43,708 bases of DNA from an uncultured Alphaproteobacteria bacterium (GTDB lineage: Bacteria; Pseudomonadota; Alphaproteobacteria; RF32; CAG-239), in the NCBI GenBank assembly GCA_910585375.1, contig CAJUCZ010000009.1:22474-66181 (forward strand), read 5' to 3'. Of this stretch, positions 27,770-38,449 are shown in pieces. Numbering within the stretch: position 1 is the first letter of the stretch; every line of letters begins with the position of its first letter. The notes beneath the pieces are model-generated. The model saw only the letters and a program-made list of their open reading frames with translations. It was not told the DNA's origin and made no database searches. Position numbers and translations under genes: made by a program.

Positions 27770-28182
27770 CCCTTTTCCTCTGCTGTCCTGTTTTATGATG
27801 TCAACAAACTGATAACCGGCATTTTAACAAATCAGGAAAAAATTTCAACCTCTCTTCACCATATCCCTGACAAACCGTACGAGACAAACTTTATATGGAT
27901 TGATAAAAAACTATCTTTCAAACCTGCATCTTTTCCTCTGCCTCACGGGCAGCAGAATTATCTATTTCTAAAGTAATATATCGGGGCGGAACATACCCGT
28001 CTTTCAAAACCAGCATATAATGTTTGATTGTCGCCCACGGCGAATATTTCTGATATTCCTTTTCCCCGCATATTCCCCGAGTAAACGGGGATTTTTCTGT
28101 AAGGGACGTAATAAAACAAAACAGCGCCCTGAAAAGGGCGCATGACAATAGAGTACAAATGCCGGTACAATTCCTGAACCGA

Positions 28183-28698
28183 TTACTGTTTACATTTTAC
28201 AAATCTGGATATAATTTCAAGACAGCAACACCACAAAAAAGCAACAACAAAAGCTATACCCACCCCTTGTCGCAGCTGCCGGATATTAACAGAACCGCTC
28301 TCAAGATACGACCCGTAAAAATATGCCAATATACAGCCCAGCGTCAAACCAGCTAATACTCCGGCTATCATTTCATGCTCGGTATCCGAAGAAGCTCCTG
28401 TTTCTCCAGTTTTCCGCAATAATGTGTCAACAAACATTGTCCCGCTATGAAAAACAAGCCTAATGAATACAAAAGATAAAATAATTGCAGGTATCATATA
28501 GAGATTTTCTATATGGCGCTCAATATTATTTAAAAATTCTCCAATATCCAGTACAGCTATAACAACAAACAAAATAAATGCCAAGGCAAATATCAGCCTC
28601 AAAATCTCTAAAGCACCAGTTTTGTGAACGGTCAAACATATTCCTGAATAAATAACCAGACCTATGCACATAAAAACAAAGCAAACATAAATTCCCAT
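28183..28698 (-). CDS. Hypothetical integral membrane protein
   Basis: 171 aa with about five hydrophobic segments. A terminator hairpin (cagcgccctgaaaagggcgctg, about 28119-28141) lies downstream. Confidence 0.4.
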   Translation of the reverse strand: MGIYVCFVFMCIGLVIYSGICLTVHKTGALEILRLIFALAFILFVVIAVLDIGEFLNNIERHIENLYMIPAIILSFVFIRLVFHSGTMFVDTLLRKTGETGASSDTEHEMIAGVLAGLTLGCILAYFYGSYLESGSVNIRQLRQGVGIAFVVAFLWCCCLEIISRFVKCKQ

Positions 28699-28923
28699 AA
28701 TTATAATATTTATAAGTTAATAATAAAATCAGTTAATAAAACATATTATAATACAAATTCAAAAGCAAGAAAAAAACACCTGAATTTGCTAAACGCCTAA
28801 GATATTTCTGAGTTATTCATAAAACCTTGGAACCCATTGTTAATAATTAAACCTATGCGATTGCAATTTTAATTATAAAAACTAAACTAACTGTAAAATA
28901 CAATTATTAATAAGGAAGATCAA

Positions 28924-30825
28924 ATGGCAAAAAAATATTCGAATGGTAAATTAAACAAAGAAGTATATTATATGACATTATCCGATATTTTTAACAAATT
29001 TACCCCATTGGTCATTCCTGCGTATCAGAGAAGTTACTCTTGGGAAGATAAGCATATAAAAGATTTAAAACAGGATATAGAAGACATAAAGGAGTTTTCC
29101 AAAAAAGAACATTTTACAGGAACAATAGTTTTATCAGAAGACAAACATAAGTATTTAATTGTTGATGGACAACAAAGATTGACAAGTTTGTTTATCTTGC
29201 TGAAATCTATATATGATAGGACTAATGATCAAAATTTATTTGAGAACTATATCATTCAAAAAACAAATAATGATTCCCAAAGCAGACTGTCTACACAAAA
29301 TGATACAAATAATTTTTTTGAAGAATTTATCGTGGAGAACAATGTCAATATAGATGTCGAAATATATTCGCACAAAAGAATAAAAGCAGCAAAAATACAA
29401 TTCGACGAATGGATAAATAATAAACAATTACAAGAAATAAATGATATATTAGACATTATAACCAAGAGGCTAAAGTTTATTGTTTACAAACCCAATAATT
29501 ATTTAAACGCCCCGGCAATGTTCGAAATAATAAATAACAGAGGAAAAGATTTAAGCGAAATAGAAAAAATAAAAAATTATTTTGTATATATAGCAACTTC
29601 ACTGGGCGAAAATCATTCTTTGCACAAAAAAATAGCCGAATCTTGGGAAGGAATGCTTAAAAACTTAAACAGGGCAGATATTCATACTATTGAAGAGGAA
29701 AATAGCTTTTTGCGTGTTTGTTTTATCACTTTTTTCAGTTCAACTAAATTAAAATACCAGAACATATACAAAACATTAAAAGAGGAAATTTTCCCAATTA
29801 AAGCCTTTAGTCAAGAAAACACCAATACAAGCGATAAATTAATGAAGTTTCTTCGCTTTATACAAACGGCATCGAAATATTACTCATGTATCGTTAGATC
29901 AAGTAACTGTAACCCTATAATAAATCAACTTCCCAACACGACTAATTTACAGATTAAATATTTAGCTTGTCAAAAAAATACATCATCAATTACCCCTTTA
30001 TTTTTAGCCATAATGGCCAGAGATGATTTAACACAAATTGAACAAGATGAATTACTCAAATATTTGGAAATTTTAAATTTCAGAATGTATGTTTTACCAA
30101 GAGTATTAACTAGATCAGATAATGGCCAATCTGAGTTGTATACCATAGCTAATCAATTTTATGAAAAACTACTTTCAGTTGAAGAATTGAAAAATAAAAT
30201 GGTAAATATATCTCTTTCTTGGGTACCTATAACAAAATTTGTGGAAGCTATGAGTCTATCAGATGACGACACATATGATTTTGCAAGTTGGAGTGGATTG
30301 AAATATTTTTTTGCCAAATACGAAGAATACCTTGAAGATAACATAAATAAAACATTTGATGTCGCCTCAATTGAAAAAACAAGAAAAGACTGCAAAAGTG
30401 GAGATTATTTGTCTATTGAACATATATGGGCCCGAAAAAATAGATTACAATACGCTGCAGAAAATTATATCGCCAAAAGAAGACTTGGAAATTTAGTTCT
30501 TTTAGAATTAACCCCTAATATTTCTGCGGGAAATGAAGATATAGAAAAGAAATTAAACGAAGATAATGATATTGAAAGCCGAATTAGTATCATTGATAAA
30601 ACAAACTTACTTCAAGGAAAAGAACTAAAAAAAATTTTTTGTTCAGTATCTCAAAGACTAAAAAAGCTCCAAAGAAAAGGAAAATGGTATTATTGCAGCC
30701 AAGGTGAATACCTGGATGATGAACGTGAAAAAAAATTAATCAAGTTCGCAATTGACACATGGCATTTTCCCAATGAAAATACCAAAAAAGCAGAGAAATT
30801 ATTAGATGACAAGTTTAATAATTAA
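28924..30825 (+). CDS. GmrSD-like type IV restriction endonuclease (N-terminal DUF262 / C-terminal DUF1524)
   Basis: N-terminal DUF262 signatures (IPAYQRSYSWE, then LIVDGQQRLTSL). C-terminal DUF1524-like His-Me finger region (LSIEHIWARKN ... LGNLVLLE...N...GNE). The gene is much lower in GC than its flanks. Confidence 0.6.
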   Translation: MAKKYSNGKLNKEVYYMTLSDIFNKFTPLVIPAYQRSYSWEDKHIKDLKQDIEDIKEFSKKEHFTGTIVLSEDKHKYLIVDGQQRLTSLFILLKSIYDRTNDQNLFENYIIQKTNNDSQSRLSTQNDTNNFFEEFIVENNVNIDVEIYSHKRIKAAKIQFDEWINNKQLQEINDILDIITKRLKFIVYKPNNYLNAPAMFEIINNRGKDLSEIEKIKNYFVYIATSLGENHSLHKKIAESWEGMLKNLNRADIHTIEEENSFLRVCFITFFSSTKLKYQNIYKTLKEEIFPIKAFSQENTNTSDKLMKFLRFIQTASKYYSCIVRSSNCNPIINQLPNTTNLQIKYLACQKNTSSITPLFLAIMARDDLTQIEQDELLKYLEILNFRMYVLPRVLTRSDNGQSELYTIANQFYEKLLSVEELKNKMVNISLSWVPITKFVEAMSLSDDDTYDFASWSGLKYFFAKYEEYLEDNINKTFDVASIEKTRKDCKSGDYLSIEHIWARKNRLQYAAENYIAKRRLGNLVLLELTPNISAGNEDIEKKLNEDNDIESRISIIDKTNLLQGKELKKIFCSVSQRLKKLQRKGKWYYCSQGEYLDDEREKKLIKFAIDTWHFPNENTKKAEKLLDDKFNN

Positions 30826-30830
30826 TATAC

Positions 30831-30851
30831 CTTCAAAAACTGAAGGTATCG
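30831..30851 (+). terminator. Intrinsic terminator after the GmrSD-like gene
   Basis: taccttc-aaaaact-gaaggta. Confidence 0.4.
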
Positions 30852-30854
30852 CAA

Positions 30855-30884
30855 TTGGTGATACTTAACTCACAATTCACGAGC
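30855..30884. repeat. Degenerate copy B of the tRNA-Glu 3' end (att-like scar)
   Basis: tggtgatacttaactcacaattcacgagc, compared with the real tRNA 3' end tggtgatcctaacgagactcgaactcgtg at 32837. Confidence 0.5.
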
Positions 30885-30978
30885 TATTTGTGATTTTATA
30901 ATTTCTTTTGACTTTATTAAGAATGTCATACTATATATCACATCAGTAGCGTTTTATTACAACGAGATTGAGGAAAGT

Positions 30979-31452
30979 ATGAAAAATATTCCTACCGTAT
31001 ATTTAATCTGTGGTTTTCTCGGAGCCGGAAAAACAACCTATTCTAAAAAGTTGACTCAAGAAACTGGTGCAATTCATCTAAACCCCGATGAAGTTTGTAT
31101 GTTAAGATACACTTCTGAAGAATATGAAACCAATTGGGATTTTTGTTTTGCACAAACGGTTGACTATCTTTGGCAAGAAATTGCTACTTATATCAAAAGA
31201 AATAAAGATGTTATCTTTGATATGGGTTTCTGGACTAAATTATCACGCGAACAAGCCATCAACAAAATCAAACAAATGGGCGGATATCCTATAATTTATT
31301 ATATCTACGCCCCTGATTCAGTCTTAAAACAAAGGCTGACAAAGAGAACCGGAAAAATTGCCGAACAAAATCTCTTACATTTCGATAGTATAAAAAAATC
31401 TTTTGAAGAACCTTCTCAAGAGGAAGTATTTATAACTGTTAAAAATTATTAA
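30979..31452 (+). CDS. Small P-loop NTPase/kinase (AAA_33 / zeta-toxin-like fold)
   Basis: Walker A motif GFLGAGKTT near the N-terminus. 157 aa. Confidence 0.5.
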   Translation: MKNIPTVYLICGFLGAGKTTYSKKLTQETGAIHLNPDEVCMLRYTSEEYETNWDFCFAQTVDYLWQEIATYIKRNKDVIFDMGFWTKLSREQAINKIKQMGGYPIIYYIYAPDSVLKQRLTKRTGKIAEQNLLHFDSIKKSFEEPSQEEVFITVKNY

Positions 31453-31726
31453 GTTAATAATCCTGAGACCAAACAGAATTCAAACTCTCTCAACCTATTG
31501 AAAAATAAAGAAACATCATCAAACGAGTTCGGAAGCTTCTCTTAGCTTTGCAAGGGAGAAACGACCGCGGCAAAGGTTAGTTGTTCGCACAAGTAGGAAA
31601 ACTTTTGTTTTCCGTAGCTGTGCAAAATTCTCCCAAAATGACATTTTAAAATTTACAACATTCGAACTCGCTGAAAGCCTTGCCCCACATAGCAAAACAG
31701 CACCCTAAAAAGAGCGCCGCTTGCAT

Positions 31727-31755
31727 TGGTGATGCTTAACTTAAGGTTCACGAAC
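31727..31755. repeat. Degenerate copy A of the tRNA-Glu 3' end (att-like scar)
   Basis: tggtgatgcttaacttaaggttcacgaac. It is preceded at 31624-31676 by a roughly 50-nt repeat that recurs at 32744-32786, upstream of the real tRNA end. Confidence 0.5.
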
Positions 31756-31767
31756 AATAAGCAGGCT

Positions 31768-32652
31768 TTAATGCTTGCGAATAATCTTTGCAAATTTATT
31801 TATAGCATTATTTAATTTTGAGACTATCCAAGGCCGCTTATCAATTCGCAGCTTCATCAATCGCATTACAGACAGTAAATCGTAAAAATCACTGGTCTTA
31901 TAACCTAATGTGTTTTTACCCGATTGAAAAACATTAGGTAAACTCTTGATATGCAACATAACCTGATCGGTATCTTTATATTCTAATGTAAATTCAAAAG
32001 AATCTGGCAATTTTATATCAAACAAGTGAGGATTTTTTTTATATTCTTGCAAAGCATAATTGAAATCGGTTTTTATAGCATTGATAGCGTCTTTAGGCGA
32101 TAAAAAAGAATCAACACTAAAATCTTTAACAATAGTTCCAATAATATTCGGACAAAGTTTTTTCGCTTCTGCCACTGCACCATTATCACCTGATATATAA
32201 ACGACAGGAATATGAAAATATACGGCAGTCAAAATACTAAATGTAGTTTCACCGACAACTTCTCCGTTTAAGGTTAATTTCTCAAAATTGCGAGAACTAA
32301 AGGTATGAGCTAAAGGCGATAACCCTGAGCCTCCTGCAGCGTGATAACCGTGCAACACCGCAAAGTCAAAAGGAAATAGATTAATTCCTTTCATCATATT
32401 AGTCGGATCTTTATCCCAATAATCAATAACCTCCACATTAGATGAAAACTGATTTTTTAAAATATTTTTAGCACTTCCGTGTCCATCCCTAATCATAATT
32501 TTATCTTGCTGAAATAAACACTCCGCCATAGCTTTAAGCTCATTTGTTTGAATTTTTTGAAACTTTTTGTAATCAGGACCGACTTTACGCACATCAGACC
32601 ATTCTCTTGTCTGTGCAATACCCTCCATATCGCTTGAAATATATATATTCAT
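31768..32652 (-). CDS. Peptidase M55 (D-aminopeptidase DppA)-like protein
   Basis: The N-terminus MNIYISSDMEGIA resembles the conserved start of the DppA/M55 family (..YIS.D.EG..). 294 aa. Confidence 0.4.
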   Translation of the reverse strand: MNIYISSDMEGIAQTREWSDVRKVGPDYKKFQKIQTNELKAMAECLFQQDKIMIRDGHGSAKNILKNQFSSNVEVIDYWDKDPTNMMKGINLFPFDFAVLHGYHAAGGSGLSPLAHTFSSRNFEKLTLNGEVVGETTFSILTAVYFHIPVVYISGDNGAVAEAKKLCPNIIGTIVKDFSVDSFLSPKDAINAIKTDFNYALQEYKKNPHLFDIKLPDSFEFTLEYKDTDQVMLHIKSLPNVFQSGKNTLGYKTSDFYDLLSVMRLMKLRIDKRPWIVSKLNNAINKFAKIIRKH

Positions 32653-32836
32653 ACTAACTCCTTTTTGCAGATAATAGCAAAAATTATAAAAGATTTGATA
32701 AACTGCTCCTAGTTTTATTACAAACGAGTTCGTAAAATTCTCCCAAAATGCGCTTTTGAAATTTACAACATTCGAACTCGGTTAAGTACTTGATTTATAA
32801 AAGAAAAACGGCAGTTTTTATACCTGCCGTTTGTAT

Positions 32837-32912
32837 TGGTGATCCTAACGAGACTCGAACTCGTGTTTTCGCCGTGAGAGGGCGACGTCCTAGGCCGCTA
32901 GACGATAGGACC
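32837..32912 (-). tRNA. tRNA-Glu (anticodon CTC)
   Basis: The minus strand reads GGTCCTATCGTCTAGCGGCCTAGGACGTCGCCCTCTCACGGCGAAAACACGAGTTCGAGTCTCGTTAGGATCACCA. It has a Glu-type D arm (TCGTCTAG.GGCCTAGGAC), anticodon loop CUCUCAC and an encoded CCA. A terminator hairpin (acggcag...ctgccgt then TTTT) follows on the minus strand. Confidence 0.85.
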
Positions 32913-32982
32913 ACTGGTTAACAAACCGATTTATAAAGTAAAACCGGCAATTTTGCAAGCACTTTTTCAAATATTTTCAAAA

Positions 32983-33336
32983 TTATTTCAGGGCGGCTTC
33001 TTCCCAGTTTTTCAACCCGATTTTCTGCCAGTCAATCGGAATATTTTCGACCATCTGCATTTCGGCCATATAACTGTCTTTAATATTTTCCAACAAAGTT
33101 TCCACAATCACCACAGCCTTAGCTTTCCGCAATTTGTCCCGCACATCCGGATGAATATAATCTAAAATAATCTTTTGCTCGGAATTGCGCAAAAATATAG
33201 CATGATCCTTGCCATCATAAATAATTTTCGGCATTTTCGGATGATTTTTCTTGGCAGTCAGAAAAATATAAATTTCCCCTTCCTCTCCTTCGGCAATACA
33301 AAATGCATTTTCTGTAGCGTATCCTGCCATTTTCAA
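32983..33336 (-). CDS. Hypothetical protein (117 aa)
   Basis: The ORF starts 6 nt downstream of the preceding ORF in the same operon. Confidence 0.35.
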   Translation of the reverse strand: MKMAGYATENAFCIAEGEEGEIYIFLTAKKNHPKMPKIIYDGKDHAIFLRNSEQKIILDYIHPDVRDKLRKAKAVVIVETLLENIKDSYMAEMQMVENIPIDWQKIGLKNWEEAALK

Positions 33337-33791: not shown

Positions 33792-35888
33792 CTACCGGCC
33801 GCCCCGCTTTCTTGCTTTATCCCAGTTATTTTGCTGTGTTTTCTGCTTTCCCGCACCGTCCGGACGGACATAAACCGGCGCACCGACATCAACGGCTGAA
33901 GCATCACGATATCCGTAATCTCTCAAAGTTCTGACAATATTCTTTAATTTACTGGAAGCGGTGCTGACATTATCTTTAACCGCTGTATCAAAACTCTGGC
34001 CGGATTTCCCTCTGGTATCTTCCTCAAGCCTTTCTGCCGCTTTTTTAACATTTTCAGCTTTCATGATTTCATACAACTGAACCAATTGGTCGCAGCTAAG
34101 ATCTTTAAACTTCGTCTTATCCCATTTAGCCAACGGAAAAGTCTGAGCAAAAGCCTTCTGTTCCTCGGCCAGATTAAGCCTGCCGTCCTCCACAAAATCC
34201 CGCAACGACTTGTCTTTATATTCATTAAAATACAAAGAAAGCTCGCCGGCCGTATCCATGGCACCGATAACGTCTTCGGCTCTTGCTCGCTTATCCTTGC
34301 TGCCCTCGGAAATTGTCTTAATATCATCCTGAATCTTATCAAAAGCATCGGCAAACGGTTTATAAGTCACTTCATTCGCCAGTTTCTCCGCCTGTTTTTT
34401 CAGAGGATTTTGATTATTGAAATTATTTTCTTCCATCATCTGGGTCATCAAAGTTTCAGACAAACCTTTTTTAAACTCCAACAAATCGGTATCAGACAGA
34501 TTGTCTCTGGCAATTTTAAGAGCTTTCATCACATCATCTTCGTTCCATTTGATATCTTTTGTGACAATGCCGTTCTCTGCCTCACATTCCAGAATAACGC
34601 CGCGAACACCTTTGTTATCCTTGTCTTCCATCGGCTTTTCGCTTTTTTGAACCTGTTTGCGTAATTTATTGGCCATTCGTCTTTTATAACCGGCTAAATC
34701 AACCAACTTGTTGTCAGCAGCTGCGGCCAACATACCGCGGGCATGTTTTTCACCCAGATTAAAAGTCGGCAAAACACCGGCCTGACCGCAGGCTTTTCTG
34801 AAAGTACCTTTGTCTTGATCTGTCAGATTACCGAATTCAATAGTCAAATATCCCTGCGCCTTCATCATGCTGACAATCTCATCTGCATATTTTCCTGGAA
34901 TTTCCTTGTCTGCAGGTAAAGCATATTTCATACGCAACGTACCATTATCATTCTTAAACTTCAAATCAATTTCATAATTAGACTTAAAAGACTTAGTCTT
35001 GTCATCCCATAAACCGTCTGACGCACGTTGATCGGGAGAAGCATAAATCCGGTAATGCAGCCAGCCCCCCCATGTATGCGTCTTAAAATAACAGGAATCT
35101 TTCTTCTTGGCTGAACGGACTTCCATAAATGTCTTCATATTTTTTTCAATCTTACTCAAATCAGGCCCGTCTTTCTTATCTTCTTTTCCTGCCTCAGCCG
35201 TTTTCACGGCCTGCTCTTTTTCAGCCTGAATTTTTTCCACTTCATTACGGACAAACTCACTCTGCTGCTCCGGCGGAAGTTTTACGGCCTCGGCGGCAAT
35301 CCGTTCTGCGGCAGCCTTGCTGCGACTGACTTCCTCGTCAACTTCAGCTTGCTCTTTTTTATCTTCCGCACTGTTGCCATACCCTAAAACAGCATGATTT
35401 TCTTCATTATGATAAGCCTGTTGAAACTTATTTTTAAATTCCTCTTCTATATTTGCCGGAAAGGAAATATCAGAAATATTGTTCATCCAGCAAAATTTGG
35501 CTAAATCCCTATACTTGTCTTCCGTCATATTCTCAGAATTTTTCAATACCAATTGACCGTTTGAAACCGCCATTGACAAGTCAGAAGGCTTCATATGATC
35601 AACTACCAGATAAAGCAAATCTTCACCGCTCGGCAGTTTTTTCTTTTCAAAATGAGAACTTTCCGCCTCAAAAGAAGAATCAAAACGGTCTTTAAAAGTA
35701 TAAAGGCGGGCAAAATCCTTCATAAAATCGGCTTTTTTATCTGCGGCAATATTTTCAACTCCTAATTCTGCCGGAATTTTGTCAGCTACACTTTCCGGAG
35801 AAAACTCGTACTCACCGTTGAAATCATTTTCTCTGCTGCTTTTGAAATTAATTGCCCGAACCATTTTTGCCTCTCTGTCAGTCATCAA
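33792..35888 (-). CDS. Large hypothetical protein (698 aa), rich in charged residues, with no recognisable domain
   Basis: Long uninterrupted ORF. An AT-rich promoter region lies upstream. No transmembrane segment or signal peptide. Confidence 0.45.
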   Translation of the reverse strand: MMTDREAKMVRAINFKSSRENDFNGEYEFSPESVADKIPAELGVENIAADKKADFMKDFARLYTFKDRFDSSFEAESSHFEKKKLPSGEDLLYLVVDHMKPSDLSMAVSNGQLVLKNSENMTEDKYRDLAKFCWMNNISDISFPANIEEEFKNKFQQAYHNEENHAVLGYGNSAEDKKEQAEVDEEVSRSKAAAERIAAEAVKLPPEQQSEFVRNEVEKIQAEKEQAVKTAEAGKEDKKDGPDLSKIEKNMKTFMEVRSAKKKDSCYFKTHTWGGWLHYRIYASPDQRASDGLWDDKTKSFKSNYEIDLKFKNDNGTLRMKYALPADKEIPGKYADEIVSMMKAQGYLTIEFGNLTDQDKGTFRKACGQAGVLPTFNLGEKHARGMLAAAADNKLVDLAGYKRRMANKLRKQVQKSEKPMEDKDNKGVRGVILECEAENGIVTKDIKWNEDDVMKALKIARDNLSDTDLLEFKKGLSETLMTQMMEENNFNNQNPLKKQAEKLANEVTYKPFADAFDKIQDDIKTISEGSKDKRARAEDVIGAMDTAGELSLYFNEYKDKSLRDFVEDGRLNLAEEQKAFAQTFPLAKWDKTKFKDLSCDQLVQLYEIMKAENVKKAAERLEEDTRGKSGQSFDTAVKDNVSTASSKLKNIVRTLRDYGYRDASAVDVGAPVYVRPDGAGKQKTQQNNWDKARKRGGR

Positions 35889-36121
35889 ATTATTGCTTTC
35901 ATCATAGCACAGTCAATATCGAAACGCAATAACTTTTGACAAAAATATTCATAAAAAAAAACATATTATTCTATTAAATATTTTTATTGATGTTTGAAAC
36001 CTCAAGTTTTTATCCTAAAATATCTACAATAACAATACTTTCCCAAAATAAATATTGACAAAACATAAAAAAGACATAAAATAAAAAAATATTATTTATT
36101 AAACTTTTATGTATATAAAAC

Positions 36122-36574
36122 ATGTTAAGAGAAAAAATGAAAGAAAGATTTAAGATTTTCGGTTGTGTTATAAGCCTTATTATCAAAGACAATAAAGTTC
36201 TGATGATTTTAAGAAAAAACAAACCGGACTCTGGATATTATAATCTGGTCGGCGGCCGCATGGAAGAAGGAGAAACCGTTCCTCAGGCTATAATACGTGA
36301 GATTCAAGAAGAAACCGGCTTAAATGTAAATAAAGAAGACATAAGTGTAGTTTCAACATTACATCGCCTTTGTGATAACGGAAACTATAATTCTATTGAA
36401 TTTGTTACGCTTATCAAAAATTTTACAGGTATGCCACAAAATCTTGAACCCCAATTCTGCGAAAAATTGGCATGGATTGATATCAACAATATGCCGGAAA
36501 ATATTTCACCATATGCCCGTACTGCAATTGAAAATTATAAAAATAAAATAGTATTTTCCGAAATTGATTACTAA
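36122..36574 (+). CDS. NUDIX hydrolase
   Basis: Nudix box GGRMEEGETVPQAIIREIQEETGL (GX5EX7REUXEEXGU). Confidence 0.75.
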   Translation: MLREKMKERFKIFGCVISLIIKDNKVLMILRKNKPDSGYYNLVGGRMEEGETVPQAIIREIQEETGLNVNKEDISVVSTLHRLCDNGNYNSIEFVTLIKNFTGMPQNLEPQFCEKLAWIDINNMPENISPYARTAIENYKNKIVFSEIDY

Positions 36575-36584
36575 AATCTAACAA

Positions 36585-36610
36585 AAGGCACCTTTGAAAA
36601 GGTGCCTTTT
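36585..36610 (+). terminator. Intrinsic terminator after the NUDIX gene
   Basis: ggcaccttt-gaaa-aggtgcc followed by TTTT. Confidence 0.6.
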
Positions 36611-36630
36611 GCCTGTAAAAACTCGTTTTT

Positions 36631-36790
36631 CAAAAAGTTTGATAAGAACCTGTGCTACGCTGTTTTTTTCGATGACATGCACAAAAAGGCACACGAGAAT
36701 TTTGAAACACAAACCTGACTGATAAAAACCCAGAAAGCGTCCTTTCAGGCCGCTGTAAAAACGCGGAGAAGCGCTAAGTAAAAACAACTG
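36631..36790. repeat. Noncoding paralogous repeat unit 1 (about 150 bp)
   Basis: About 80% identical to 36987-37150. It begins caaaaagtttgataa and contains cacgagaattttgaaac and ctgactgataaaaac.cagaaagcgtcc.ttcaggccgctgtaaaaa. Confidence 0.7.
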
Positions 36791-36986
36791 CGCTCCGGTT
36801 GTTTTTGTCTGCAAGCTCTTTGGAACATCTTGGCAAGCAAGGAAAGCATGAGCAACCGCAGCGAGCCTGGATGCCTAAGTCAGATAATAAGAAAAAATCT
36901 TTAAGATGACAAGCGCGTACATAGACGTACGTAACTTAGCCTTAAAGATTTTTTCTGTATTAATAGACCATTATACGCGTTTTTAC

Positions 36987-37150
36987 CAAAAAGTTTGATA
37001 AAGGTCGGTGCTGCGCCGTTTTTTTTTCGACGACGTGTACATATAGCTACACGAGAATTTTGAAACGCAAAACTGACTGATAAAAACGCAGAAAGCGTCC
37101 GTTCAGGCCGCTGTAAAAAATGTGGAGAACGAGAGAAATAATAAGATTTT
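36987..37150. repeat. Noncoding paralogous repeat unit 2
   Basis: See unit 1. Each unit is followed by a hairpin whose loop contains GTACATAGA (36886-36952 and 37157-37205). Confidence 0.7.
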
Positions 37151-37237
37151 AGGGTGGAGAAAGCGGAGTGTACATAGAAGTACATGAGCATTTCTCCAAC
37201 CCGCTAAATCTGTATTAGTTCTCCGTTATACACATTT

Positions 37238-38449
37238 TTACTTTTGGAGGACTACAACGCCCGGCAACTCCTTCCCCTCCATCCACTCCAGAAAAGCACC
37301 GCCGGCAGTGGATATGTAAGAGAACTTGCTGGCAACACCTGCATTTTCAAGAGCCGAAACCGTATCACCGCCGCCGGCAACCGTCAGCAAACGCCCTTCC
37401 TGCGTCAATACGGCAGCACGTTCAGCCACTTTATTGGTCGCAGTATCAAACGGTTTAAGCTCAAATACGCCGAGCGGACCGTTCCAAACCAGAGTTTTGC
37501 ATTCTTCCAGCTTTTTATTGATAGATTCGATTGTCTTGGCACCGACATCCATCAAAATCCAACCTTCAGCGGGAATATGTTCCAAATCCACGGTTTTATG
37601 TTCGGCATCAGCCTTAAATTCTTTAGAAACAACCACATCCAGCGGCAAAATAATTTCGCAGTTATTCTCCTTGGCCGTCTTCATGATCTCTTTGGCTGTG
37701 TCAATCATATCCATCTGAACCAAAGAATTGACCTCGTTCACAGTATCAATACCGCTGGCTTTCATAAAGGTATGAGCCATACCGCCGGAAATCACAAGCT
37801 TGTCAACTTTCTTAACCAGATTGTTCAGCAAATCAAGCTTGGTCGACACCTTGGAACCGCCGACAATAGCCATCAACGGACGCTGCGGATTGTTAAGTCC
37901 CTTCGACAAAGCATTAACCTCTTCTGCCATCAGCAAACCCATTGCAGCCGGACGCAGTTTTGCCGCGGCAACCATGGAAGCATGCGCACGGTGAGCGGTA
38001 GAGAAAGCATCGGAAACATAAACGTCAACCGGTTTAACCAGTTCTTCGGCAAATTTCTCGTCACCTTTCTTTTCTTCATTATAAAAGCGCAGATTTTCCA
38101 GCAACAGAATTTGATCATTGCGCAAAGACTTAACGGCTTCTTCAACTTTCGGCCCGATGCAATCGTCAACAAAAACCACATGCTTGCCCAGCGCTTTCTC
38201 CAAATCTTTGACAATATGGCTGAGAGAATTCTTCATGTCGCCCTTGCCTTCCGGACGGCCGAAGTGAGAAACCACCACAACTTTGGCACCTTTGTCCATC
38301 AAAAGTTTAATGGTCGGAACGGTACGGTCAATACGGGCTGTGTTGGTCACATGAAAATTCTCATCCATCGGCACATTCAAATCGGCGCGCAACATAACGA
38401 CTTTTCCGTTCAAATCACCCAAATCTTCAATCATTTTATATTCAGTCAT
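37238..38449 (-). CDS. pgk: Phosphoglycerate kinase
   Basis: The N-terminal LRADLNVP region and overall PGK architecture (403 aa). The equal-length plus-strand ORF is a mirror artefact. Confidence 0.8.
   Translation of the reverse strand: MTEYKMIEDLGDLNGKVVMLRADLNVPMDENFHVTNTARIDRTVPTIKLLMDKGAKVVVVSHFGRPEGKGDMKNSLSHIVKDLEKALGKHVVFVDDCIGPKVEEAVKSLRNDQILLLENLRFYNEEKKGDEKFAEELVKPVDVYVSDAFSTAHRAHASMVAAAKLRPAAMGLLMAEEVNALSKGLNNPQRPLMAIVGGSKVSTKLDLLNNLVKKVDKLVISGGMAHTFMKASGIDTVNEVNSLVQMDMIDTAKEIMKTAKENNCEIILPLDVVVSKEFKADAEHKTVDLEHIPAEGWILMDVGAKTIESINKKLEECKTLVWNGPLGVFELKPFDTATNKVAERAAVLTQEGRLLTVAGGGDTVSALENAGVASKFSYISTAGGAFLEWMEGKELPGVVVLQK

Follow-up and report, generated by a model that had tools for sequence, protein, structure and literature searches.

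Introduction

Integron attC sites, such as the ~125-nt repeats of Vibrio cholerae, are imperfect hairpins that start at or close to the stop codon of the gene before them, in the same orientation, with covarying stems, conserved unpaired bases and homogeneous sequences within a genome. ERIC elements are found in either orientation. They are transcribed, intergenic and often located at the 3' ends of genes, with reported effects on mRNA stability, and ERIC-type sequences have terminal inverted repeats, target duplications and flanking TA dinucleotides (PMC3184786). An RNA-level role has been proposed for SPRITE (Delihas 2011, PMC3184786), BOX elements of Streptococcus pneumoniae are transcribed (PMC3184786), and BIMEs alternate the orientation of their REP units (PMC2817692). 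Here, we describe a cluster of hairpin-forming repeats between the pgk and nudix genes on a 43,708-nucleotide stretch of DNA (the window) from an uncultured alphaproteobacterium (assembly GCA_910585375.1, contig CAJUCZ010000009.1, positions 22,474 to 66,181). In kind, the cluster comes closest to SPRITE, ERIC and BOX/BIME-type elements (PMC3184786; PMC2817692).

The spacer is probably a mosaic cluster of pgk-oriented repeats, made up of two type-1 hairpins, debris of a second hairpin type and a nested module, with a role that would be exerted in the 3' untranslated region (UTR) of the pgk transcript. The original prediction for this spacer was two paralogous structured RNAs, possibly tandem small RNA (sRNA) genes. 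That interpretation is replaced here by a documented repeat family, which can be masked and annotated in metagenome-assembled genomes (MAGs) of a common uncultured gut lineage.

Results

Composition of the pgk-nudix spacer

The spacer is bounded by the nudix stop codon (36572-36574, plus strand) and the pgk stop codon (37238-37240, minus strand), and the identity of both genes was confirmed with Pfam. The two paralogous units that had been proposed are borne out: blastn aligned 36621-36770 with 36975-37129 at 83% identity over 155 nt (E 8e-40), including a gap-free block of 99 nt with 89% identity (repeat family D1). No further copy of the unit was found in the window by blastn and similarity searches. 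The hairpin predicted to follow each unit also exists, but both are far longer than described, at ~130 nt each including an outer stem that covaries. Hairpin 1 contains a perfect 16-bp stem (36890-36905 with 36941-36956, inverted repeat I2) and hairpin 2 contains a pairing of 37152-37162 with 37191-37201 (inverted repeat I9). Between the two hairpins, the outer closing stems covary (GTAAAAACGCGGAGAA/TTATACGCGTTTTTAC versus AAAAATGTGGAGAACG/CGTTATACACATTTTT, inverted repeats I5 and I6), and the pgk stop codon lies inside the stem of the second. The apical GTACATAGAnGTAC motif, GTAC-N6-GTAC, has three occurrences in the gap where 0.13 would be expected by chance.

Every part of the gap belongs either to a single superfamily of repeats or to one repeat nested among them, all in the orientation of pgk, and the meaningful strand of the array is the minus (pgk) strand. 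From the nudix side to the pgk side, the features are:

36580-36611, no strand assigned: plain bidirectional terminator hairpin CAAAAGGCACCTTT/AAAGGTGCCTTTTG (perfect 14-bp inverted repeat I4)
36613-36631, minus strand: solo basal-stem remnant CTGTAAAAACTCGTTTTTC (direct reading; repeat D8 links it to the 5' boundary of B1)
36632-36752, minus strand: unit A1, mosaic debris, 83% identical to A2 and aligning with type-2 hairpins
36753-36986, minus strand: hairpin B1, a type-1 repeat of core type alpha (cmsearch; inverted repeats I2 and I5)
36768-36884, minus strand: module C, a dispersed structured element of ~115 nt, nested in B1
36987-37110, minus strand: unit A2, the paralog of A1 (repeats D2 and D5), containing the degenerate apex CGTGTAGCTATATGTACACG
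37111-37241, minus strand: hairpin B2, a complete type-1 repeat of core type gamma (cmsearch, folding and stop-codon register)

Hairpin B2 is a single imperfect hairpin of 131 nt, with the pgk stop codon TAA (37240-37238) among its first bases. A covariance model (R1), built from 52 non-redundant type-1 copies, matches it at 37109-37247 with 130.4 bits on the minus strand (E 2e-32) and 46.3 bits on the plus strand. Its minimum free energy (MFE) is -48 to -54 kcal/mol with z about -9.5 on either strand, with -48.4 kcal/mol and z = -9.8 for B2 as listed above. Hairpin B1 is matched on the minus strand at 36870-36976 (60.3 bits, E 1.8e-13, model positions 17-124). Its outer stem pairs GTAAAAACGCG (36986-36976) with CGCGTTTTTAC (36765-36755), and module C interrupts its 3' arm; the same core is present in locus L018 (loci are given by L numbers throughout), there without the insert. 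When the window was scanned with R1, B1 and B2 were the only array copies recovered, both on the minus strand, together with weak basal-stem matches to plain terminators.

One of these weak matches is the hairpin at 36580-36611, which lies just 3' of the nudix stop codon, is the final hairpin of the array in the pgk direction and was also reported as a terminator-like site in our terminator scan. The neighbouring solo stem resembles a hairpin base in its A-tract and T-tract but lacks a core. Either it arose by deletion, or it is a terminator-like site that is not occupied. Two small minus-strand open reading frames (ORFs) of 78 and 96 aa lie in the gap; they were considered as genes and rejected, as their translations are junk-like and the short ORFs are not conserved in L012.

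Type-1 hairpins as a dispersed repeat family

Further copies of the hairpins were sought and they recur as a dispersed family in related contigs. A scan of metagenomes with the pattern TAATACAGA-N(24-40)-ATGTAC-N(14-32)-TCTTATTA returned 97 stretches with 61 distinct cores, from human gut, rumen and similar samples. Some contigs carry type-1 copies at several separate sites, and many copies form directly abutting tandem arrays. Model R1 gave 156 matches in 544 kb of loci, roughly half of which are weaker antisense re-matches of the same copies, and copy density reaches 4-5 per 11-14-kb locus. The element-bearing contigs encode orthologs of window genes at 74-96% amino acid identity; in L032, a pgk gene with 81% identity is again followed by a type-1 element. 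At different loci of Ga0310690_10000107 (L050, L067 and L079) the cores are identical and the basal stems differ from locus to locus. No match to the pattern was found in the viral contigs scanned, and a plasmid collection gave one chance match only.

The original prediction that no annotated family matches held up. A search of the window against Rfam 15 at gathering thresholds detected nothing but two tRNAs elsewhere, and allowing E values up to 10 across 36400-37400 added only sub-threshold chance matches, most of them on the nudix terminator. A literature search for the type-1 motifs returned irrelevant results only, with no description of them. The type-1 hairpin is apparently an undescribed dispersed repeat family, ~125-140 nt long, in a clade of uncultured gut Alphaproteobacteria.

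The commonest human-gut copy is followed, right after its 3' end, by one of two alternative sequences: TTTATTTAG|GTTTATG... in the L028 type and TTTATTTAG|CTTTCCC... in L045, L083 and L112. This suggests that rearrangement breakpoints fall at the element boundary.

Structure and covariation of type-1 hairpins

Read in the orientation of the upstream gene, a type-1 element begins with a basal stem that starts with the stop codon of that gene and usually consists of an A-tract, a short GC stem and a T-tract. Above an asymmetric basal loop (GTATAATGG / CTCATTCTCC) stands the helix TAATA-C-AGA / TCT-TATTA with a bulged C, then a freely covarying middle stem and finally the apical hairpin YGUAC-N4AU-GUACR, in whose loop a strand-specific 'AT' is kept adjoining the second GTAC. 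Outside the three motifs fixed by the search pattern, conservation extends to the basal loop (which additionally has two co-varying alternative classes), the first GTAC and a CTCC after the apex. The core types alpha, beta and gamma have their length and loops in common and differ by fully compensated changes in their stems.

The predicted structure of 49 pairs was evaluated across the 52 copies. Paired cells amount to 91.9%, against 70.3% after shuffling (a value of 91.9% was reached in 0 of 500 shuffles) and 40-52% when pairing partners were slid. Changes on both sides affect 33 of the 49 pairs, in 579 cells against 189 expected, and double changes are present at nine of the ten basal pairs. 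The C:G to U:A change beside GTAC, which had been noted from the two hairpins of the gap, proved to be general: among the 52 members this pair is U-A in 33, C-G in 17, U-G in two and unpaired in none. In the variant of L126, a helix that was fixed in the search pattern covaries too (TAGTA/TACTA). Type-1 copies fold with MFE values of -48 to -61 kcal/mol (z about -10). The original prediction of structured elements with truly covarying stems is borne out, but its suggestion of tandem sRNA genes is not supported.

Type-1 hairpins follow stop codons in the orientation of the upstream gene

Every type-1 copy lies on the strand of its upstream gene, and no multi-copy locus (0 of 51) has copies on mixed strands. 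Sense matches score 120-135 bits with cmsearch and antisense matches 45-55 bits. An ORF of at least 90 aa in the same orientation terminates 19-25 nt ahead of TAATACAGA in 52 of the 122 non-redundant copies, so that its stop codon coincides with the start of the basal stem or lies very close to it. In 16 more, the ORF terminates at either of two TAAs within the element, and the remaining copies mostly lie 124-154 nt or about 250 nt past a stop codon, in second or third place within an array. The elements are thus biased towards gene 3' ends, with 70 of the 122 beginning within, or up to ~40 nt after, the stop codon of a co-oriented ORF. A TAA or TAG directly heads the A-tract in 35 of the 52 aligned copies. 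Stop-codon register combined with strict co-orientation with the upstream gene is unusual, and distinguishes the type-1 family.

The basal stem resembles a rho-independent terminator. Around the short GC stem, at least four Ts are present in the 3' arm of 43 of the 52 copies and at least four As in the 5' arm of 44, and the ordinary terminators of the window have the same A-tract/stem/T-tract form, starting 4-21 nt after stop codons. Stem mismatches on the gene strand are more often pyrimidine-pyrimidine than purine-purine (127 versus 36) and more often G.U than A.C (71 versus 41), although this asymmetry is weak evidence for strand because the structure was derived on the gene strand. We regard the element as a 3'-UTR structure which may, but need not, be a terminator.

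Type-2 hairpins and module C

Unit A aligns with a second subfamily of ~120-nt hairpins, type 2 (L121, L066, L123 and L067), which has its basal loop in common with type 1 and carries the apex CGTGTAC-N6-GTACACG. A1 and A2 both hold the remnant 3' arm CTTTCTGCGTTTTTATCAG. In A1, a degenerate type-2 hairpin (apex CGTGTGC..GCACATG) is accompanied by a small GCGGCC-TGAAA-GGACGC hairpin and by what remains of a 3' arm, CTTTCTGGGTTTTTATCAG; this unit has no match to model R1 and also aligns with shorter A forms in L013 and L018. The third palindrome that had been reported inside unit 2 is present, as CGTGTAGCTATATGTACACG, and is in fact a decayed type-2 apex. Judged by these alignments, A1 and A2 are decayed pieces of the related type-2 subfamily.

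Module C, a structured module in its own right, accounts for the extra 105 nt in hairpin 1. It consists, in order, of a covarying 5' hairpin, the conserved sequence GAGCTTGCAGAC, a terminator-like hairpin of A5-stem-T5 form and the conserved sequence CTTAGCGCTT, and 14 of its 31 predicted pairs are kept through double changes. Copies of module C were located at:

L125, 1548-1664
L125, 3367-3483
L126, 4001-4106
L035, 2626-2744
L045, 18-125

In L035 and L126 the module adjoins or is fused with type-1 hairpins, and in L125 it occurs twice apart from any. In appearance, module C resembles either an sRNA or a further repeat family. The sequences L125-L127 (MT838567, MT835812 and MT835910), all of which carry it, are of human-faecal origin and were deposited as 'UNVERIFIED: Bacteriophage sp.'; L126 also has a type-1 hairpin, after an ordinary-looking gene end. 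These may be bacterial contigs that were mislabelled as phage.

The pgk locus in related genomes

Synteny was followed through pgk; the nudix gene was dropped for this purpose since nudix relatives with 74% identity have a different context. In relatives whose pgk is 96-99% identical there is no nudix gene at this position, and the array lies between pgk and a co-directional ORF of 680-692 aa with no assigned function. The convergent arrangement of nudix and pgk on which the original prediction was framed is thus real in this strain, but absent from these relatives. Their arrays contain the modules in other orders and numbers, truncated or chimeric, with other core types at the pgk stop codon. 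In relatives with 92% pgk identity the array is absent, and an ordinary A-tract/GC-stem/T-tract terminator begins at the pgk stop codon. No clean pair of filled and empty sites was found among the loci compared: L013 and L018 do not differ after pgk by a clean insertion, and the window and L028 are not orthologous. Because its content differs between strains with 99% identical pgk, the array could serve as a strain-typing marker.

A pattern scan of the genome collection for unit A returned one true relative, L012 (Alphaproteobacteria bacterium RGIG9125, from water deer rectum), and two chance matches, which argues that unit A is local and not dispersed. L012 has the same modules in a different order together with a chimera, and its contig ends (position 1) inside the array. 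The window itself is identical to metagenome-assembled contigs labelled as an uncultured member of the Alphaproteobacteria, and two contigs of the window strain, L002 (~36854) and L004 (~36701), likewise end within the array. Such breaks in independent assemblies show that MAG assemblies of this lineage are fragmented by these repeats.

The ORF downstream of the array has 698 aa in the window (33792-35888, minus strand). It lies in that position in all syntenic relatives, has no Pfam match, is followed by two small ORFs also without a family, and with 91% DNA identity to L012 is diverging faster than pgk. Unit A2 is 98% identical to its copies in L012 and L017. A special constraint on A2 was considered and rejected, since with 99% identical pgk the genomes belong to one species and since the value of 91% comes from this fast-evolving gene.

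Comparison with known repeat families

Like SPRITE, the type-1 hairpins are dispersed non-coding elements of ~100-130 nt with a Rho-independent-terminator-like motif and a bias towards gene 3' ends. No sequence relation to SPRITE was seen and the host phylum is another. Type-1 elements also differ in being long multi-helix hairpins with conserved internal loops, a GUAC apex and a stop codon at the stem base; they are often tandem and always share the orientation of the upstream gene. ERIC, or IRU (a ~127-bp imperfect palindrome), resembles type 1 in size, in its long imperfect hairpin and in its intergenic position, often at 3' ends. However, the ends of type-1 elements covary freely and no duplication was seen at them; there is no sequence similarity between the two, and no Rfam or BLAST match for type 1. 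With BOX and BIME/RIME elements the cluster has in common its modular mosaic or tandem arrays, in which number and order vary by strain (PMC3184786; PMC2817692). The modules of the gap are, in contrast to BIMEs, all in one orientation, and measure 105-140 nt as against ~35 nt for REPs. Size and single orientation thus set them apart from REP/BIME elements, which are palindromic units of ~20-40 nt in alternating orientation, and no RAYT or insertion sequence (IS) partner was seen, RAYT genes not having been searched genome-wide.

The original prediction had allowed that the units might instead belong to a MITE-like family of mobile-element debris. Since the hairpin is a dispersed multi-copy element, with many copies under 200-400 bp that fold into a long hairpin as MITEs do, this is essentially what was found, yet the family is not a known one and lacks the classical MITE hallmarks. 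In place of terminal inverted repeats there is a basal stem that varies and covaries, the conserved sub-terminal motif GTATAATGG is not an inverted copy of its counterpart CTCATTCTCC, and no parent IS was seen. The flanks of 62 copies contain no direct repeat that would mark a target-site duplication, and on the 5' side the copies are bordered by the end of the preceding coding sequence. Integron attC sites share with type-1 hairpins their length, proximity to a stop codon, orientation, covarying stems, conserved unpaired bases and homogeneity. Type-1 hairpins differ in following housekeeping genes in conserved synteny (gap-pgk) and in abutting each other without cassettes. Identity with attC was rejected, as the core sites RYYYAAC ... 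GTTRRRY are absent from the type-1 consensus; no integrase-linked array was seen.

Possible function and alternative explanations

If the copies act at all, they would act as RNA hairpins at mRNA 3' ends. Position and orientation make a part in termination or mRNA stability, played by a co-transcribed 3'-UTR hairpin, the most likely function. Such a hairpin might terminate transcription, block 3' exonucleases or be processed by a lineage-specific factor that would read the conserved loops and apex. Copies could have spread by recombination or conversion between them, by unequal crossing-over in arrays and possibly by insertion into terminator loops.

Several observations weigh against a cluster of repeats acting in the 3' UTR. 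That the array would be co-transcribed as the pgk 3' UTR and would act at the RNA level is proposed solely on account of where it lies and how it is oriented. The two strands have similar folding stability, which means that folding energy fails as a test of strand, and selection on a DNA strand instead is possible. Three motifs were fixed in the search pattern, and the 'invariant' motifs are therefore partly an effect of ascertainment. Nine of the 52 copies have no T-tract, and in L032 a classical terminator lies ~200 nt further downstream, showing that the type-1 element is not always the terminator. The window's own genome contributes just two type-1 copies in 43.7 kb, and the copies were accompanied neither by a visible transposase nor by terminal inverted repeats or target duplications. 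Lastly, at all ten loci with sites more than 1 kb apart (L035, L037, L042, L053, L056, L059, L067, L075, L080 and L085) the copies are confined to one strand while 41% of long ORFs in element-bearing loci are on the other, which may reflect, atop gene co-orientation, the replication-strand bias typical of single-strand DNA transposition.

This last pattern is also what would be expected of a non-autonomous mobile DNA with a single-stranded or hairpin intermediate that targets terminator hairpins. Its basal stem would be the terminator of the host gene, with a core of ~105 nt inserted into the loop, and co-orientation would be a by-product of replication-strand bias. IS200/IS605-type elements, REP/RAYT elements and group IIC introns are the kinds with which such an element would be compared. 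The basal stems vary like independent terminators around cores that are identical across L050, L067 and L079; presence, absence and core type differ at the strain level; repeats are nested (module C in B1); relatives have a plain terminator at the orthologous pgk stop codon; and a solo basal stem is found at 36613-36631. Mobile DNA of this kind is a serious rival, but we consider it unlikely. The comparison of L013 and L018 yielded no clean filled and empty pair, no partner gene was found, 108 loci are without a target duplication, a conserved terminal inverted repeat or an ORF flanked by inverted copies, and the exact stop-codon register and strand-asymmetric loops fit selection on the transcript equally well. 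A bolder and tentative proposal, which we hold to be rather unlikely, is that types 1 and 2 make up a superfamily of strand-specific, stop-codon-anchored RNA modules, in which a lineage-specific protein or ribonuclease would read the asymmetric loops and the apex as a portable mRNA 3'-end signal for termination, processing or decay control, or else a new mobile element inserting one-way into terminator loops. Clean covariation together with stop-codon register makes this family a good case for telling selected RNA 3'-end modules from selfish DNA that exploits terminators.

The two readings offered by the original prediction are both very improbable. One was a pair of tandem paralogous trans-acting sRNA genes of the AbcR1/AbcR2 kind, each made up of a unit A and, as terminator, the hairpin after it. 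The units are indeed 83% identical with long identical blocks, a short hairpin with a T-run lies at 37006-37027 on the plus strand, and module C on the minus strand is sRNA-like in its succession of hairpin, conserved single-stranded stretch and terminator-like hairpin. However, a promoter scan found no promoter-like site common to both units, there is no Rfam match, and unit A is assembled from fragments of other repeats. The units are not kept as units in relatives, being reshuffled, truncated or chimeric at 96-99% pgk identity and absent at 92%, and the supposed terminators belong to a family found at more than 100 unrelated genes, in the orientation opposite to the proposed sRNAs. The other reading, of GTAC-N6-GTAC as double-stranded operator sites for a dimeric regulator, or of some other array of protein-binding DNA, draws on the threefold occurrence of the motif in the gap and on the invariance of GTAC in the family, which makes a sequence-specific reader of the apex plausible. 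Against it, the motif is invariably the tip of a long covarying hairpin, and these hairpins occupy the 3' ends of more than 100 genes, not promoter regions upstream of genes. The pair flanking GTAC covaries like a stem (U-A 33, C-G 17), unlike a fixed half-site, and the 'AT' beside the second GTAC is kept in a strand-specific manner. Synteny, orientation, position and the lack of per-unit promoters thus argue against sRNA genes and operators alike.

Neighbouring genes and genomic context

The nudix gene (36122-36574) has its closest homologs at 74% identity, and the GC content of 36001-37000 is 33.6% compared with about 44% elsewhere. This suggests a recent insertion of nudix adjoining the repeat cluster. 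A second low-GC region (29-35%), at 28000-33000, adjoins a tRNA gene (32840-32912) and encodes a GmrSD-type restriction endonuclease (28924-30825) and a zeta-toxin/AAA_33-like kinase (30979-31452). This region is probably a defence island.

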